Shown piece after piece: positions 5,573-64,000 of a stretch of 64,000 bases of DNA. The notes under the pieces were generated by a model. That model searched no databases. It worked only from the letters and a program-made list of their open reading frames with translations, and was not told the DNA's origin. The translations under genes were made by a program, and so were the position numbers. Source of the DNA: Escherichia coli (GTDB taxonomy: Bacteria > Pseudomonadota > Gammaproteobacteria > Enterobacterales > Enterobacteriaceae); assembly GCF_002854065.1 (NCBI RefSeq), contig NZ_CP024147.1; one strand, given 5' to 3'. Positions within the stretch are counted from its first letter, which is position 1. The number at the start of each line of letters is the position of its first letter.

Positions 5573-8146
5573 TTACTGGACGGCGACAATCCGGTCTTCA
5601 TTAACTTCCAGGCGAATCACTTTACCCGGAACCAATTCACCAGACAGTATTTGCTGTGCCAACGGGTTTTCGATCTGCTGCTGGATAGCACGTTTCAAAG
5701 GACGTGCACCATAGACTGGATCGTAACCGTTCTCGCTCAGCAGTTTCAGCGCCTCGTCAGAAATGTGGATTTCATAACCACGTTCTTCCAGACGTTTGTA
5801 CAGACGTTTCAACTGAATCTGCGCAATCGAGGCAATGTGCTGTTCGCCCAGCGGATGGAAGACCACCACTTCATCGATACGGTTAATGAACTCCGGACGG
5901 AAGTTATGGCTTACCACACCGAGCACCAGTTCTTTCATATGCGCATAATCCAGTTCACCGAAGCGTTCCTGAATCAAATCGGAACCGAGGTTAGAGGTCA
6001 TAATGACAACCGTATTACGGAAGTCGACCGTTCTCCCCTGCCCGTCAGTCAGACGCCCATCATCCAGTACCTGCAACAGAATGTTGAAGACATCCGGATG
6101 CGCTTTTTCCACTTCATCCAGCAGGATAACGGAATACGGACGACGACGCACAGCTTCGGTCAGGTAGCCACCTTCTTCATAACCAACATATCCCGGAGGC
6201 GCACCAACCAGACGAGACACCGAGTGTTTCTCCATAAACTCGGACATATCGATACGGACCATCGCCTCGTCGCTATCAAACATAAAGTTCGCCAGCGCCT
6301 TACAAAGCTCAGTTTTCCCCACACCAGTTGGGCCGAGGAACAGGAATGAACCAATCGGGCGATTTGGATCCGCCAGCCCCGCACGGCTACGACGAATAGC
6401 GTTAGATACCGCATCAACCGCTTCGTTCTGACCAATAACGCGATGGTGCAGTTCTTGCTCCATACGCAGCAGTTTTTCGCGCTCGCTTTCCATCATGCGA
6501 GAAACCGGAATCCCCGTCCAACGCGCCAGCACTTCAGCAATTTCGGCGTCGGTCACTTTATTACGCAACAGACGCATAGTTTTGCCTTCGAGCTGCGTTG
6601 CGGCTTCCAGTTGCTTTTCCAGCTCCGGGATTTTGCCGTATTGCAGTTCAGACATCCGCGCCAGGTCACCCACACGGCGAGCCTGTTCAATAGCGATTTT
6701 CGCCTGTTCCAGTTCCGCTTTAATGGTCTGCGTACCAGAAAGCGATGCTTTCTCTGCTTTCCACTCTTCTTCTAACTCGGAGTACTGACGTTCTTTGTCG
6801 CTCAGTTCTTCGTTGAGCATATCCAGACGTTTTTTACTGGCTTCATCAGACTCTTTCATTAACGCCTGTTGTTCCAGTTTGAGCTGGATGATACGGCGAT
6901 CGAGTCGGTCGAGTTCTTCTGGTTTTGAGTCAATCTGCATACGAATGCTGGATGCTGCTTCATCGATCAGGTCGATGGCTTTATCCGGCAGCTGACGGTC
7001 AGCAATGTAGCGATGAGACAACGTCGCCGCTGCAACAATTGCCGGGTCAGTAATTTGCACATGGTGGTGCAATTCGTAACGTTCTTTCAGGCCACGTAGA
7101 ATCGCAATGGTATCTTCAACAGAAGGCTCGGCAACAAACACTTTCTGGAAACGACGTTCCAGCGCAGCATCTTTTTCGATGTACTGGCGATATTCGTCAA
7201 GCGTCGTGGCACCTACGCAGTGCAATTCACCACGCGCCAGCGCCGGTTTCAGCATGTTTCCGGCGTCCATTGCGCCATCGGCTTTACCCGCGCCGACCAT
7301 GGTATGTAATTCGTCGATAAACAGGATGACGTTGCCTTCCTGTTTGGCAAGATCGTTAAGCACGCCTTTTAAACGTTCTTCAAACTCACCGCGATATTTC
7401 GCCCCAGCCACCAGCGCGCCCATATCCAGCGCCAGTACGCGGCGGCCTTTCAACCCTTCCGGCACTTCGCCGTTGATAATACGCTGCGCCAGACCTTCAA
7501 CGATGGCAGTTTTACCGACGCCGGGTTCACCAATCAGTACCGGATTATTTTTAGTACGACGTTGCAGCACCTGAATGGTACGGCGAATTTCTTCATCACG
7601 ACCAATCACCGGATCGAGTTTGCCCTGTTCGGCTCGTTCGGTAAGGTCGATGGTATATTTTTTCAAAGCCTGACGTTGGTCTTCAGCACCTTGATCGTTC
7701 ACGCTTTCACCTCCACGCATTTGTTCAATCGCTTGAGTAATGTTGGCGGTGGTCGCCCCTGCTGCTTTCAGGATGTCGGCCAGCGTGCCGCGAGACTCAA
7801 GTGCCGCCAGAACGAACAGTTCTGACGAGATAAAGTTATCACCACGTTTTTGCGCCAGCTTGTCGCAAAGATTAAGAACGCGCACCAGATCCTGTGATGG
7901 CTGGACATCACCACCAGTACCTTCAACCTGCGGTAAACGATTTAATGCCTGATTGATATCTGTGCGCAACTGGCCAGCATTTATGCCAGCTGATGTTAAC
8001 AAAGGACTAACCGAACCCCCTTCCTGATTCAGCAGGGCGCTCATTAAATGAAGTGGTTCGATGAATTGGTTGTCGTGCCCGAGTGCAAGTGATTGGGCAT
8101 CGGCAAGAGCAAGCTGGAATTTATTAGTAAGACGATCCAGACGCAT
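5573..8146 (-). CDS. clpB: ClpB disaggregase (AAA+ chaperone, Hsp100)
   Basis: ORF track 861 aa; N-terminus from [18 protein letters not shown] onward, two Walker A motifs ([16 protein letters not shown]); start moved to the fifth in-frame Met (857 aa). Confidence 0.95.
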
Positions 8147-59830: not shown

Positions 59831-61369
59831 ATGCAACAGCAAAAACCGCTGGAAGGCGCGCAACTGGTCATTATGACGATTGCGCTGTCACTAGCGACAT
59901 TCATGCAGGTGCTGGACTCCACCATTGCTAACGTGGCGATCCCCACTATCGCCGGGAATCTGGGCTCATCGCTCAGCCAGGGAACGTGGGTAATCACTTC
60001 TTTCGGGGTGGCGAATGCCATCTCGATCCCGCTTACCGGCTGGCTGGCAAAGCGCGTCGGGGAAGTGAAACTGTTCCTCTGGTCCACCATCGCCTTTGCT
60101 ATTGCGTCGTGGGCGTGTGGTGTCTCCAGCAGCCTAAATATGCTGATCTTCTTCCGCGTGATTCAGGGGATTGTCGCCGGGCCGTTGATCCCGCTTTCGC
60201 AAAGTCTATTGCTGAATAACTACCCGCCAGCCAAACGCTCAATCGCGCTGGCGTTGTGGTCGATGACGGTGATTGTCGCGCCAATTTGCGGCCCGATCCT
60301 CGGCGGCTATATCAGTGATAATTATCACTGGGGCTGGATATTCTTCATCAACGTGCCGATTGGCGTGGCGGTGGTGTTGATGACATTGCAGACGCTGCGC
60401 GGACGCGAAACCCGCACCGAACGGCGGCGGATTGATGCCGTGGGGCTGGCACTGCTGGTTATTGGTATCGGCAGCCTGCAGATTATGCTCGACCGCGGTA
60501 AAGAGCTGGACTGGTTTTCATCACAGGAAATTATCATCCTTACCGTGGTGGCGGTGGTGGCTATCTGCTTCCTGATTGTCTGGGAGCTGACCGACGATAA
60601 CCCGATAGTCGATCTGTCGTTGTTTAAGTCGCGCAACTTCACCATCGGCTGCTTGTGTATCAGCCTCGCGTATATGCTCTACTTCGGCGCTATTGTTCTG
60701 CTGCCGCAGTTGTTGCAGGAGGTCTACGGTTACACGGCAACGTGGGCAGGTCTGGCCTCTGCGCCGGTAGGGATTATTCCGGTGATCCTGTCGCCGATTA
60801 TCGGCCGCTTCGCGCATAAACTGGATATGCGGCGGCTGGTAACCTTCAGCTTTATTATGTATGCCGTCTGCTTCTACTGGCGTGCCTATACCTTTGAACC
60901 GGGCATGGATTTTGGCGCGTCGGCCTGGCCGCAGTTTATCCAGGGCTTCGCTGTGGCCTGCTTCTTTATGCCGCTGACCACCATTACGCTGTCTGGTTTG
61001 CCACCGGAACGACTGGCGGCGGCATCGAGTCTCTCCAACTTTACGCGTACGCTGGCGGGGTCTATCGGCACGTCGATAACCACAACCATGTGGACCAACC
61101 GCGAGTCGATGCACCATGCGCAGTTAACCGAGTCGGTAAACCCGTTCAACCCGAATGCCCAGGCGATGTACAGTCAACTGGAAGGGCTTGGGATGACGCA
61201 ACAGCAGGCCTCCGGCTGGATTGCCCAGCAGATCACTAACCAGGGGCTGATTATTTCCGCCAATGAGATCTTCTGGATGTCAGCCGGGATATTCCTCGTC
61301 CTGCTGGGGCTGGTGTGGTTTGCTAAACCGCCATTTGGCGCAGGTGGCGGCGGAGGCGGTGCGCACTAA
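59831..61369 (+). CDS. emrB: Multidrug efflux MFS transporter EmrB
   Basis: Start moved to MQQQKPLEGAQLVIMTIALSLATFMQV (512 aa); 14-TM MFS. Confidence 0.93.
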   Translation: MQQQKPLEGAQLVIMTIALSLATFMQVLDSTIANVAIPTIAGNLGSSLSQGTWVITSFGVANAISIPLTGWLAKRVGEVKLFLWSTIAFAIASWACGVSSSLNMLIFFRVIQGIVAGPLIPLSQSLLLNNYPPAKRSIALALWSMTVIVAPICGPILGGYISDNYHWGWIFFINVPIGVAVVLMTLQTLRGRETRTERRRIDAVGLALLVIGIGSLQIMLDRGKELDWFSSQEIIILTVVAVVAICFLIVWELTDDNPIVDLSLFKSRNFTIGCLCISLAYMLYFGAIVLLPQLLQEVYGYTATWAGLASAPVGIIPVILSPIIGRFAHKLDMRRLVTFSFIMYAVCFYWRAYTFEPGMDFGASAWPQFIQGFAVACFFMPLTTITLSGLPPERLAAASSLSNFTRTLAGSIGTSITTTMWTNRESMHHAQLTESVNPFNPNAQAMYSQLEGLGMTQQQASGWIAQQITNQGLIISANEIFWMSAGIFLVLLGLVWFAKPPFGAGGGGGGAH

Positions 61370-61377
61370 GGTTGTCA

Positions 61378-61404
61378 AAGGGAGCTTCGGCTCCCTTTTT
61401 ATTT
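61378..61404 (+). terminator. emrB intrinsic terminator
   Basis: gggagc-ttcg-gctccc followed by tttttattt. Confidence 0.75.
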
Positions 61405-61626
61405 GCTCATTGTGCAAACGGTTGTTTTATCCACTCATTCGGTGTATCTTTTCGCCGCCCCAAACTCTTCCATTCACTATTAACCGGTTCTGAGCATTCG
61501 CTCAGGTTGTTAATTCTCTTTTTCCTTCGCCCTCGCTTTCGCGGGTGATACTCACATTTTCCGTTTAACCCCATAACTCGCACCCTCGCGGGCGTACGTT
61601 TATTACACACAAAATAATGGATTATT

Positions 61627-62334
61627 ATGAATACCCAACTTAAATACGGGAGAACCTGGCATTATCCTTTCTCCCCCGGCACCACCAGCGATGACCGCAT
61701 TAACGCCGATTACTGGCAGGATTTACAGGCCATCGCGCAACTGGTGCATACAGAAAAACTCGACGGCGAAAATAACTGCCTTAACCGCTACGGTGTGTTT
61801 GCCCGTTCCCATGCCGCGCCTACGCAGTCGGCATGGACCTATAAAATTCGCCAGCGTTGGCAACTGCTGAAAAACGATCTCGGCGACCTGGAGTTGTTTG
61901 GCGAAAATCTCTACGCCGTTCATTCCATTGAATACCGCGCGCTGGAACAGGACTTTTACCTGTTTGCCGTTCGCTGCCAGGATATGTGGCTGAGCTGGGA
62001 AGAGGTGCAGTTTTACGCCGCCCTGTTTGATTTCCCCTGCGTTCCCGAAATCTCCGGCCCGCAGCCGGGGAATGATGAAAAAAGCTGGCAACGTGATTTT
62101 CTGGCACTGACCAATGCGCGCGGCGCGTTCGATCCCTGGGATACACAAACCGGGCAACCCTGTACTCTGGAAGGCATTGTCAGCCGGAATCGTGATGCGT
62201 TTTCCGTCGCTGACTTTTCGCATAACGTCTTCAAGTATGTGCGCAAAAATCATGTCAAAACCACTGTGCACTGGAAACGACACTGGCAACGGGCGCGGAT
62301 GGCCCATGAGTTCGCTTATGGAGAACAGTCATGA
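61627..62334 (+). CDS. Putative ATP-dependent polynucleotide ligase (minimal covalent nucleotidyltransferase)
   Basis: 235-aa ORF with candidate nucleotidyltransferase motifs: [35 protein letters not shown]; ATG start; 4-nt ATGA overlap with the next gene. Confidence 0.7.
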
Positions 62335-63443
62335 TTTGGCAGCTTACCGACGATAAACGCTGGTCGACACTACGCCAGCGTTTCAGTTGGGTTGAGGAGA
62401 TGCATCACACGCCACAAGACCCGGAGCATCATGGTGAAGGTGACGTCGGCGTGCATACCGAAATGGTGCTTAACGCCCTTGTTACTCAGCCAGAATTCCA
62501 GCAACTCCCCGCTCAACAGCAGGAAGTTTTATGGGCGGCGGCGTTATTACATGATGTTGAAAAGCGCAGCACTACCGTGCAGGAAAACGGACGTATTCAG
62601 TCGCCGGGCCATGCTCGTCGGGGCGAACTGACGGCCCGGCTGATTTTGTGGCGCGATATCCCAACGCCGTTCGTGCTGCGCGAGCAAATCGTTGCGCTGG
62701 TGCGTCTGCATGGGTTACCGCTATGGTTACTGGAACGTCCGGAACCGGAGCGTTTGTTGCTCACGGCTGCAATGCGCATCGACACGCGTCTGCTCACTTT
62801 GCTTGCTCGTGCCGATCTGCTTGGTCGCCAAAGCCCGGATCAGCAATCAATGCTGGAACGCATCGATCTGTTCGAGCTGTTTTGCCAGGAGCAACAGTGT
62901 TGGGGAAAAGTGCGCTCGTTCGTGTCTGATTCCGCACGCTGGCATTACCTGACCCATGAGCAAAGTTCTCCTGATTTTGTTCCCTGGGAGGCTGAACCTT
63001 TTGAGGGCATTTTGCTGTGTGGCTTACCGGGTATGGGCAAAGATCGCTATATCAATGAACAGTGCCAGGGAATGGACGTTATCAGCCTTGATGATATGCG
63101 GCGGCGAATCAATGCCAATCCGGACGACAAAACCGCCACCGGGCGTATTGTGCAACAGGCAAAAGAAGAGGCACGCGTTTTTTTACGCCAGAAAAAGCCG
63201 TTCATCTGGAATGCAACGAACTTTACCCGCCAGCTTCGTAGCCAGCTCATCAGCCTGTTTACGGCTTACGGCGCACGAGTAAAAATAGTTTATCTTGAAG
63301 TGCCATGGGCGCAATGGAAGCAGCAAAATGCCAGACGCGAGTATGCAGTTCCTGAAGCGGTCGTGATGCGGATGGCCTCAAGGCTGGAAGTTCCTCAACC
63401 TGATGAAGCACATAGCGTGGAGTATCGGGTGATTGAAAGGTAA
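62331..63443 (+). CDS. Putative HD-domain phosphoesterase fused to a 5-prime-OH polynucleotide-kinase-like P-loop domain
   Basis: 370-aa ORF: N-terminal HD signature ([10 protein letters not shown] ... LLHDVEK ... D), C-terminal P-loop GLPGMGKD followed by ISLDDMRRR and TRQLR, resembling polynucleotide kinase catalytic motifs. Confidence 0.7.
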
Positions 63444-63448
63444 AAAAA

Positions 63449-63473
63449 CCGGGCGGTGGTGTCACCTGCCCGG
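63449..63473. terminator. Bidirectional terminator between the HD-kinase gene and luxS
   Basis: ccgggcggtg-gtgt-cacctgcccgg with A7 upstream and T-rich downstream. Confidence 0.65.
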
Positions 63474-63491
63474 CTTCTTTTGTTCCACTGA

Positions 63492-64000
63492 CTAAATGTG
63501 CAGTTCCTGCAACTTCTCTTTCGGCAGCGCCAGTTCTTCGTTGCTGTTGATGCGCACGTCACGTTCCAGAATGCTACGCGCAATATCCTGCGCTTCCTGC
63601 AACGAGTGCATCTGGTAAGTGCCACACTGGTAGACGTTCAGTTCCGGGATCTGATTCTGATCCTGCACTTTCAGCACGTCTTCCATTGCCGCTTTCCAGG
63701 CATCAGCAACACGCTGCTCATCTGGCGTACCAATCAGACTCATATAAAAACCGGTGCGGCAGCCCATTGGCGAGATATCGATAATCTCTACACCATTACC
63801 GTTAAGATGGTTACGCATAAAACCAGCAAACAGGTGCTCCAGGGTATGGATCCCTCTTTCTGGCATCACTTCTTTGTTCGGCACGCAGAAGCGCAGATCG
63901 AACACGGTGATTGCGTCGCCATGCGGGGTGTTCATTGTTTTCGCCACCCGAACTGCAGGCGCTTCCATCCGGGTATGATCGACTGTGAAGCTATCTAACA
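63492..64000 (-). CDS. luxS: S-ribosylhomocysteine lyase LuxS (partial; N-terminus beyond the window end)
   Basis: Translation ...[59 protein letters not shown]... to ...EKLQELHI-stop; start codon would lie just past position 64000. Confidence 0.9.

Follow-up and report, generated by a model that had tools for sequence, protein, structure and literature searches.

The Locus and Its Boundaries

The window analyzed here is a stretch of 64,000 nucleotides from Escherichia coli (RefSeq assembly GCF_002854065.1, contig NZ_CP024147.1); the features described below are on the strand shown, unless noted otherwise. The chromosomal gene order in the window is emrR-emrA-emrB, a gene of a stand-alone adenylyltransferase-domain polynucleotide ligase, a gene of an HD-Pnk protein, and the convergent luxS. 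The ligase gene occupies positions 61627..62334 on the plus strand, with the ATG at 61627 and the stop codon ending at 62334, and codes for 235 amino acids. It is a real open reading frame with the same coordinates as in the first-pass annotation, which had been made from the letters alone; its assignment as a ligase comes from a Pfam match, conserved residues and a structure model. The second gene (62331..63443, plus strand, 370 aa) has an N-terminal HD phosphoesterase part and a C-terminal P-loop 5'-OH polynucleotide kinase part, and its ATG overlaps the ligase stop codon (ATGA). In RefSeq, the annotation pipeline has already given the first gene a correct product name ('RNA ligase family protein', WP_001095979.1), while the product name of the second is 'ATP-binding protein'. 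We found no paper on either of the two E. coli genes in the literature.

On the left, the two-gene cassette is bounded by an intrinsic terminator hairpin of emrB at 61377..61398 (plus strand; a 9-bp stem followed by a T run), located just past the emrB stop codon at 61367-61369. A putative sigma-70 promoter was read at 61422..61450 (plus strand), with the -35 hexamer TTGTTT, a 17-nt spacer and the -10 hexamer TATCTT, and we infer that it may serve as the cassette promoter. The hexamers stay in place when upstream regions from other Enterobacteriaceae are aligned, and those of Superficieibacter (TTGCAA/TATTAT) are closer to the ideal; a consensus promoter scan did not flag 61422..61450. On the right, a hairpin CCGGGC...GCCCGG between an A run and a T run (63442..63481, no strand assigned) is a terminator-like site by sequence reading. 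It probably acts as a bidirectional terminator common to the cassette and the convergent luxS, whose stop codon is at 63492.

Between the putative promoter and the ligase gene, we observed a conserved leader hairpin, CCGGTTCTGAGCATTCGCTCAG, at 61484..61505 (plus strand), identified by pattern match and RNAalifold. The pattern is unique in the window, had no match in 100 shuffles, and was found upstream of the ligase gene in 11 pattern-matching emrB-linked enterobacterial loci and in none of the 73 other loci. RNAalifold kept a single 6-bp stem in the leader, with the covariation coming essentially from one sequence. A riboswitch-like structured RNA was considered and rejected, given this covariation, a z-score of -1.9 for the single-sequence fold of the leader, and the lack of any family match in an Rfam search with the 260-nt leader. 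A candidate LexA/SOS box at 61490-61505 (CTG-N10-CAG) was also rejected upon inspection, as its centre is GC-rich and it is better read as the hairpin.

Sequence Assignment of the Ligase Gene

The first-pass annotation had suggested an HMM search for this protein. The Pfam family RNA_ligase (PF09414) matched residues 38-205 with an E-value of 3.7e-28; the score of 99.3 bits against a cut-off of 27 is above the gathering threshold, and the alignment runs across the whole model (positions 2-171 of 171). This match and the conservation of the motifs described below are far beyond chance. The NCBIfam collection held no model for the ligase, and the PADLOC defence-system models gave no match to it.

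A search of 5.8 billion proteins produced 2156 homologs with E < 1e-5. Nearly all of them are stand-alone proteins of 228-250 aa, and the identity to the E. coli ligase is 60-87% even in Bacteroidota; an exhaustive search among cluster representatives found ligase homologs in 1284 clusters. The sequence profile built for the ligase reaches the ligases Trl1 and NgrRnl at an E-value of about 1e-4. On the other hand, the single-sequence search of PDB sequences returned mollusc hemocyanins (E 2e-9) and no ligase. We reject the hemocyanin match as an artefact since its score was summed over eight repeated units, each having an individual E-value of 0.37 or worse.

The dN/dS ratio of the ligase gene is 0.04-0.11, which corresponds to strong purifying selection. 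The E. coli protein is an uncharacterized member of an already described heal-and-seal repair family, and its kind is not new.

Catalytic Motifs and Conserved Residues

Residue conservation was assessed in a 66-sequence alignment of diverse ligase homologs, down to about 30% identity. The first-pass annotation had named ligase motifs I, III, IV and V in the expected order. All four are present and collinear, with E93, F113, E182-G183 and K203 conserved in sequence order. Three of the motif positions given there stand (KLDGEN at 44-49, LFGENLYAV at 90-98 and VFKYVRK at 201-207), while EGIVSR is located at 182-187 rather than at about 183-188. Motifs Ia and IIIa are added to the list here.

Motif I, KLDGEN (aa 44-49; 61756..61773, plus strand), contains the invariant residues K44, D46 and G47. 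K44, which had been proposed as the adenylylated lysine, is conserved in all 66 homologs and aligns with K40 of the Deinococcus protein DR_B0100; it is the predicted AMP-accepting lysine. The region FARSH (aa 58-62; 61798..61812, plus strand), with R60 conserved in at least 90% of sequences, would be motif Ia, judging from its position in the nucleotidyltransferase (NTase) fold. Motif III, LFGENLYAV (aa 90-98; 61894..61920, plus strand), carries the invariant E93, and Y103 is invariant as well. In motif IIIa, FYLFAVR (aa 110-116; 61954..61974, plus strand), F113 is at least 90% conserved. The spacing of 20 between E93 and F113 is the same as that between E99 and F119 in T4 Rnl2, and the IV-to-V spacing of the ligase is likewise that of Rnl2.

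Motif IV, EGIVSR (aa 182-187; 62170..62187, plus strand), has E182 and G183 invariant, and in the profile search it aligns with motif IV of NgrRnl and Trl1. Motif V, VFKYVRK (aa 201-207; 62227..62247, plus strand), includes the invariant K203, followed by V205 and R206, both conserved in at least 90% of the sequences. This motif is atypical: it reads K-x-V-R, as compared to the canonical K-x-K of Rnl2 and Rnl5, with the second position taken by V205 and then R206.

Outside of the Pfam domain, conservation extends to both termini. A family-specific N-terminal motif (aa 6-24; 61642..61698, plus strand) includes K6, Y7, H12, S16, D22 and D23, all at least 90% conserved, and its counterpart in DR_B0100 is KYPSIPHLPWSPGLQNDDR. 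In the basic C-terminal tail (aa 208-235; 62248..62331, plus strand), H209 and W216 are conserved at the same level, while V210, K211, T212, H215, W220, R222 and A223 are invariant in the close-homolog set.

Predicted Structure of the Ligase

The AlphaFold2 model of the ligase, made with the 66-sequence alignment, had a pLDDT of 94.3 and a pTM of 0.91. The model has the nucleotidyltransferase fold expected in the first-pass annotation, and its closest structures are RNA ligases. In the structure comparison, the highest score was that of the Naegleria RNA ligase of the Rnl5 type (15.1), followed by T4 Rnl2 (14.8), archaeal Rnl3 (13.3) and T. brucei REL1 (12.9); Trl1 ligase domains scored about 11, DNA ligases about 10-11 and capping enzymes about 8. 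A Foldseek search with the same model agreed with this ranking. Neither of the two outcomes named in the first-pass annotation as refuting its reading, a non-nucleotidyltransferase fold or an unconserved motif I lysine, was obtained, which supports its interpretation.

The part that aligns to the NTase core covers about 177 of the 235 residues, and the OB and C-terminal domains are absent; the description of the protein as a minimal ligase is therefore appropriate. What is left outside of the core is an N-terminal segment of about 37 aa and, at the C terminus, a basic tail of about 30 aa, both conserved and confidently modelled. The N-terminal motif had pLDDT values of 96-98, and the C-terminal tail was modelled mostly as coil with pLDDT of 81-96. 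We found no Rnl2-type C-terminal helical domain, as the protein ends 28 residues past motif V with an extended tail in the model. We also found no Rnl5-type N-terminal OB-like domain: only 37 residues precede the Pfam domain, the model has no beta-barrel there, and in the profile search NgrRnl was alignable only from its residue 147 onward. The ligase probably recognizes its substrate via the conserved N-terminal motif and the basic C-terminal tail, and it may also require a partner or a special substrate architecture.

The Downstream Partner, HD-Pnk

The N-terminal part of HD-Pnk had a weak match to the Pfam HD family and, in NCBIfam, resembled the multifunctional CCA-adding/repair enzyme in its HD region. 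The C-terminal part had a strong match to the AAA_33 P-loop kinase family, and its best NCBIfam relative was the kinase part of bacterial Pnkp. Among PADLOC models, HD-Pnk matched only the Cas3 HD domain, at chance level (E 0.04).

In an alignment of 81 HD-Pnk sequences, the metal ligands H34, H42, H74-D75, H94, H127 and D162 were at least 95% conserved; the HD dyad H74-D75 (62550..62555, plus strand) is located in ALLHDVEK. The P-loop and a D-x-x-R motif similar to that of T4 Pnk are conserved in the same set. The P-loop sequence GLPGMGKD (aa 231-238; 63021..63044, plus strand), conserved in the clade, has Asp where Ser or Thr is usual; the Deinococcus protein DR_B0098 has GSGKS at this place instead of GMGKD.

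In the structure model of HD-Pnk, the kinase domain superposes on the kinase of C. thermocellum Pnkp, on mammalian PNKP and on T4 Pnk, and the N-terminal domain superposes on a tRNA nucleotidyltransferase. HD-Pnk has no OB fold. We also co-folded the ligase with HD-Pnk, using 24 genome-paired sequences joined by a Gly-Ser linker. With this shallow alignment, and with no PAE produced, the pTM was 0.59; HD-Pnk was modelled confidently, and the ligase termini had pLDDT below 50, which lends no support to a physical complex. The idea that HD-Pnk supplies a substrate-binding module to the ligase in trans gains no support from the OB-less HD-Pnk or from the co-fold.

Distribution and Synteny

The cassette was present between emrB and luxS in 998 of 5426 complete E. 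coli genomes (about 18%). Strain K-12 does not have it, and only 63 bp separate emrB and luxS there. At 0.53, the GC content of the cassette resembles that of the flanking DNA, and emrB, the cassette and luxS also follow one another in Klebsiella spallanzanii, in Superficieibacter and in an Enterobacter species. Both observations led us to reject the idea of a foreign island. Since the GC content is flank-like and the order is kept in three other genera, long residence at this site, with repeated loss in K-12-like lineages, seems more likely than recent insertion.

For the wider set, a scan of one genome per species gave 329 relatives, and 80 loci were kept; Runella is not among the 80. These loci span Enterobacterales and Bacteroidota and include Escherichia, Klebsiella, Serratia, Xenorhabdus, Providencia, Proteus, Chitinophaga, Chryseolinea and Bacteroides. 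The synteny is obligatory: a full-length HD-Pnk homolog, with 49-96% identity, was located immediately downstream of the ligase gene and on the same strand in all 80 loci, and by ORF calls the two frames overlap in 58 of them. This strongly supports, at the pathway level, the earlier suggestion that the downstream HD-kinase is the ligase partner. The ligases at the Chitinophaga, Chryseolinea and Ohtaekwangia loci (Bacteroidota) are 62-68% identical to the E. coli ligase.

Genes of RNA repair were found among the neighbors. An RtcB gene was present just upstream of the ligase gene, on the same strand, in 17 of the 80 loci and in at least three lineages; in eight of these 17 loci (Serratia, Bacteroides), a gene of a PrfH-type release factor was located between RtcB and the ligase. 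Distant homologs of the ligase domain are fused to a 2H phosphoesterase, a PTP-type phosphatase and a P-loop kinase in 'Swiss Army Knife' proteins. Ligase homologs are also present in jumbo phages, where ligases of such type have been interpreted as tRNA repair enzymes; in phage XacN1, no recognizable kinase was seen beside the ligase homolog.

Comparison with Characterized Systems

The pairing of a ligase with HD-Pnk is already in the literature. Among the closest known systems is a Deinococcus radiodurans operon. Its ligase DR_B0100 (LigB/DdrP) is 35% identical to the E. coli ligase over 216 aa (pairwise E 5e-27), with residues 4-216 of the ligase aligned to 2-194 of DR_B0100 and K40 opposite K44; a tblastn search in a plasmid collection also finds DR_B0100 (E 2e-18). 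Both proteins consist of the adenylation domain alone (210 aa in Deinococcus vs. 235 aa in E. coli) and have in common the N-terminal KY..H.P.SPG..DD and C-terminal VR..HVxT..HW motifs. The Deinococcus HD-Pnk, DR_B0098, aligns with the E. coli one over the full length at 29% identity (E 8e-34), and in both species the operon starts with the ligase gene. In Deinococcus, however, the operon is on a megaplasmid, and a PARG-like gene (TIGR02452) separates the ligase gene from the HD-Pnk gene; E. coli has neither feature.

It has been reported that DR_B0100 forms an AMP adduct, which is abolished by the K40A substitution, and that it ligated no tested DNA or RNA substrate, either alone or with its operon partners. 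For DR_B0098, an HD-kinase, 5'-kinase activity was described. In a later report, DR_B0100 ligated DNA only in the presence of both DR_B0098 and PprA.

These data bear on an explanation in which the cassette repairs DNA strand breaks, with HD-Pnk cleaning 3'-phosphate/5'-OH DNA ends and the ligase sealing DNA, as proposed for 'LigB'. Besides the in vitro ligation with DR_B0098 and PprA, this explanation draws on the induction of the DR_B0100-DR_B0098 operon by ionising radiation and on the radiation sensitivity of DR_B0098 mutants and, in one study, of DR_B0100 mutants. These operon data point to DNA and count against a reading in terms of RNA. The explanation is also favored by the resemblance of the HD-Pnk kinase domain to mammalian PNKP, a DNA repair enzyme, and by the description of the Runella HD-Pnk as a DNA/RNA end-healing enzyme. 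However, the relatives closest to the ligase in sequence and structure are without exception RNA ligases, and DNA ligases rank clearly below them; a DNA-binding or OB domain is absent from the ligase. The neighbors in other genomes are genes of RNA repair (RtcB, PrfH) and not of DNA repair. In addition, one study found the radiation resistance of a DR_B0100 mutant to be that of the wild type, LigB and PprA are not always found together in a Deinococcus species, and inspection revealed no convincing LexA box upstream of the E. coli cassette. On balance, we consider repair of DNA by the cassette to be unlikely.

A second related system is that of Runella slithyformis, where the ORF of a putative ligase overlaps the HD-Pnk ORF (Munir & Shuman). 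The Runella HD-Pnk is a characterized enzyme that combines an HD domain of 2',3'-phosphoesterase type at the N terminus with a 5'-OH kinase domain at the C terminus, and the Runella ligase forms the enzyme-AMP and sealed none of the tested substrates. By its description, the gene layout matches that of the E. coli cassette; the Runella cluster has two additions absent from the E. coli cassette, Tpt1 and a methyltransferase-HIT gene.

The formation of E-AMP by two homologs that seal no tested substrate suggests another explanation: the protein would be a true adenylyltransferase carrying out a reaction other than simple sealing of 3'-OH and 5'-PO4 ends. Such a ligase could act on a 2'-phosphate or modified end, could depend on an activating partner, or could only adenylylate 5' ends, thus capping or marking them. 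Trl1 uses a 2'-phosphate end, and the ligase domain of Pnkp needs Hen1; the latter case is a precedent for an obligatory activator. The Tpt1 (a 2'-phosphotransferase) and the methyltransferase-HIT protein of the Runella cluster would also fit, as would the atypical motif V and the presence, between the Deinococcus ligase and HD-Pnk genes, of PARG, which strips ADP-ribose from 5'-phosphate ends. On the other hand, the E. coli cassette has two genes only, so the gene of any further partner that the ligase requires would be located elsewhere, and all mappable residues for the Rnl2-type steps 2 and 3 are conserved. HD-Pnk reportedly removes 2'-phosphates too, which argues against a Trl1-like requirement for 2'-PO4. 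We regard a reaction of this kind as improbable.

Among RNA ligases with assigned types, T4 Rnl2 and the Naegleria/Deinococcus Rnl5 have PF09414 and the motif order in common with the ligase, at an identity of 13-20%. They differ by the domains attached to the core: nick sealing by T4 Rnl2 depends on a helical domain at its C terminus, Rnl5 carries an OB-like domain at the N terminus, and the E. coli ligase has neither.

Among ATP-dependent heal-and-seal systems, those of phage T4 (Pnkp with Rnl1), bacterial Pnkp/Hen1 and fungal and plant Trl1 are well understood. Their logic is like that of the cassette: breaks with 2',3'>P and 5'-OH ends are handled by a phosphoesterase and a 5'-kinase together with an ATP-dependent ligase. 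Still, the phosphoesterase of the cassette is of the HD type, compared to the HAD, calcineurin-like or 2H types in those systems. The cassette also differs in coding for the minimal ligase as a separate protein and in having no Hen1 methyltransferase.

In the Serratia and Bacteroides loci, the RtcB2-PrfH module immediately precedes the ligase/HD-Pnk pair on the same strand; it is absent from this part of the E. coli window. Both this module and the cassette are sporadically distributed accessory modules, though the chemistry of RtcB, a GTP-dependent ligase of 3'-P and 5'-OH ends, is unrelated. RtcB2-PrfH has been reported to rescue and religate ribosomes cut by colicin E3. The accessible published list of accessory genes around PrfH-RtcB mentions no ligase/HD-Pnk pair.

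Proposed Function of the Cassette

We consider it likely that the ORF codes for an ATP-dependent polynucleotide ligase, reduced to the NTase domain, that is the sealing half of the cassette, with HD-Pnk as the healing half and with RNA as the most likely substrate. The preference for RNA is suggested by the nearest relatives being RNA ligases, by the RtcB-PrfH neighbors, and by the contexts of the Swiss Army Knife proteins and the phage homologs.

In the proposed mechanism, by homology, the HD domain would strip 2',3'-cyclic, 3'- or 2'-phosphates to leave a 3'-OH, and the P-loop kinase of HD-Pnk would phosphorylate the 5'-OH. The ligase would react with ATP to form Lys44-AMP, move the AMP to the 5'-phosphate and catalyze the attack of the 3'-OH. 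Of these activities, the self-adenylylation of the ligase and the kinase and phosphoesterase activities of HD-Pnk are those carried over from the homologs, and the translation of HD-Pnk would be coupled to that of the ligase. The substrates would most likely be RNAs cut by transesterifying ribotoxins, for example in tRNA anticodon loops or in rRNA, and the cassette may have the role of an accessory counter-toxin or stress-repair module. The sealing step, the preference for RNA and the anti-ribotoxin role go a step further and are inferred, while family membership, fold, residue conservation, synteny and purifying selection are what the present analysis shows.

Several observations count against this proposal. 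Both tested homologs self-adenylylate and yet seal no standard DNA or RNA substrate; since neither sealed a standard 3'-OH/5'-PO4 substrate, even when its operon partners were added, sealing is unproven for the whole family. The Deinococcus radiation data, the lack of the second lysine in motif V, the co-fold without support for a complex and the lack of a match among the PADLOC defence models are to be added here.

A more specific version of the proposal for RNA sealing could account for the first of these observations. It is possible, if tentative, that the ligase is specialized for one damaged RNA in its native context, for example a toxin-cut rRNA or tRNA on the ribosome, and that the pair acts as an ATP-dependent arm beside RtcB2-PrfH. 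Sealing in the native context only would explain why the homologs self-adenylylate without sealing model substrates. The joining of the pair to RtcB-PrfH operons in Serratia and Bacteroides would be accounted for as well.

The cassette is not a new kind of system. However, the HD-Pnk-associated ligase is spread over many bacterial phyla, and two biochemical attempts have found no substrate for it. An intact conserved copy under purifying selection at a fixed chromosomal site of E. coli, with natural strains that carry it and natural strains that do not, makes the question of the ligase substrate directly testable in the best genetic system, and the linkage with RtcB-PrfH is a contextual clue to what the substrate of the family is. 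If the ligase does act on one damaged RNA in its native context, E. coli strains with and without the cassette would be the first genetic handle on the substrate of this ligase family.

Leader and start region of the ligase gene

The approximately 200 nt located 5' of the ligase gene (61422-61626 in the window) are conserved between enterobacterial genera, with conserved blocks that include CTTCCATTCAC. Judged from its sequence, the 5' end of this leader (61422-61450) likely carries the promoter for the cassette, composed of TTGTTT, a 17-nt spacer, and TATCTT. Further downstream, a hairpin CCGGTTCTGAGCATTCGCTCAG (61484-61505) occurs once in the window and is confined to the emrB-linked loci. 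Covariation in the leader was weak, with essentially one sequence supplying it, and no Rfam family was found to match the region 61422-61626.

Within the leader, conservation is highest in the block ATAATGGATTAT(C/T)ATG, situated around a mini-ORF of 8 codons (MDYYEYPT, followed by a stop; 61617-61643) that is out of frame with the ligase and overlaps its start codon. We consider that this block is probably simply the ribosome-binding region.

Domain features of the ligase and HD-Pnk

In a single-sequence PDB search, ligase residues 79-166 (61861-62124) matched mollusc hemocyanins with an E-value of 2e-9. We rejected this relationship as an artefact of repeat summation, since the score adds up eight repeated units, each of which alone is non-significant.

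In some homologs, an HNH nuclease domain is fused N-terminally to the ligase domain, a fusion that has been noted likewise in the jumbo-phage literature. The ligase homolog P0134 had a weak Pfam HNH match, and the gene of Halogranum tailed virus 1 found as a phage match is annotated as “HNH protein”.

The P-loop of HD-Pnk, GLPGMGKD (63021-63044), has an aspartate after the lysine, at the position usually taken by serine or threonine. Of the 81 sequences in the clade, at least 95% keep this Asp-type P-loop; the Deinococcus HD-Pnk (DR_B0098) instead has GSGKS.

Cassette ends in E. coli strains

Close to the two ends of the cassette we observed an imperfect 12-nt direct repeat, TTCCATTCACTA (61468-61479) and TTCCACTGACTA (63483-63494), which may mark the junction of an old insertion or deletion, although it could also have arisen by chance. 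The emrB-luxS spacer of K-12 is 63 bp long, and its terminator hairpin differs from the one in the window. In the bovine strains XJ34 and XJ6-3, the match to the 61300-63600 query was broken into two pieces, and the annotation under this match was an IS200C transposase.

Neighboring genes in related loci

Among the loci fetched, the ligase and HD-Pnk genes were separated by about 790 nt solely in a Dysgonomonas genome (L074), where an additional 276-aa ORF lies between them (6666-7496). In several loci of Bacteroidota, a conserved 392-aa protein is encoded between RtcB and the ligase (L038, 4537-5715; also L041, L046, and L061). Pfam gave no match for either protein.

Besides the loci with PrfH described next, nine others had RtcB upstream of the ligase, with PrfH not detected. 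In L070, L079, and L080, the end of RtcB was at most about 80 nt from the ligase start. Both RtcB and a PrfH-type release factor were present in Serratia and Bacteroides, 5' of the ligase/HD-Pnk pair on the same strand, at a distance of about 700-1700 nt from the ligase (L014-L017, L020, L076, L077, and L082). In these genera, RtcB, PrfH, the ligase, and HD-Pnk make up a putative four-gene RNA/ribosome repair operon.
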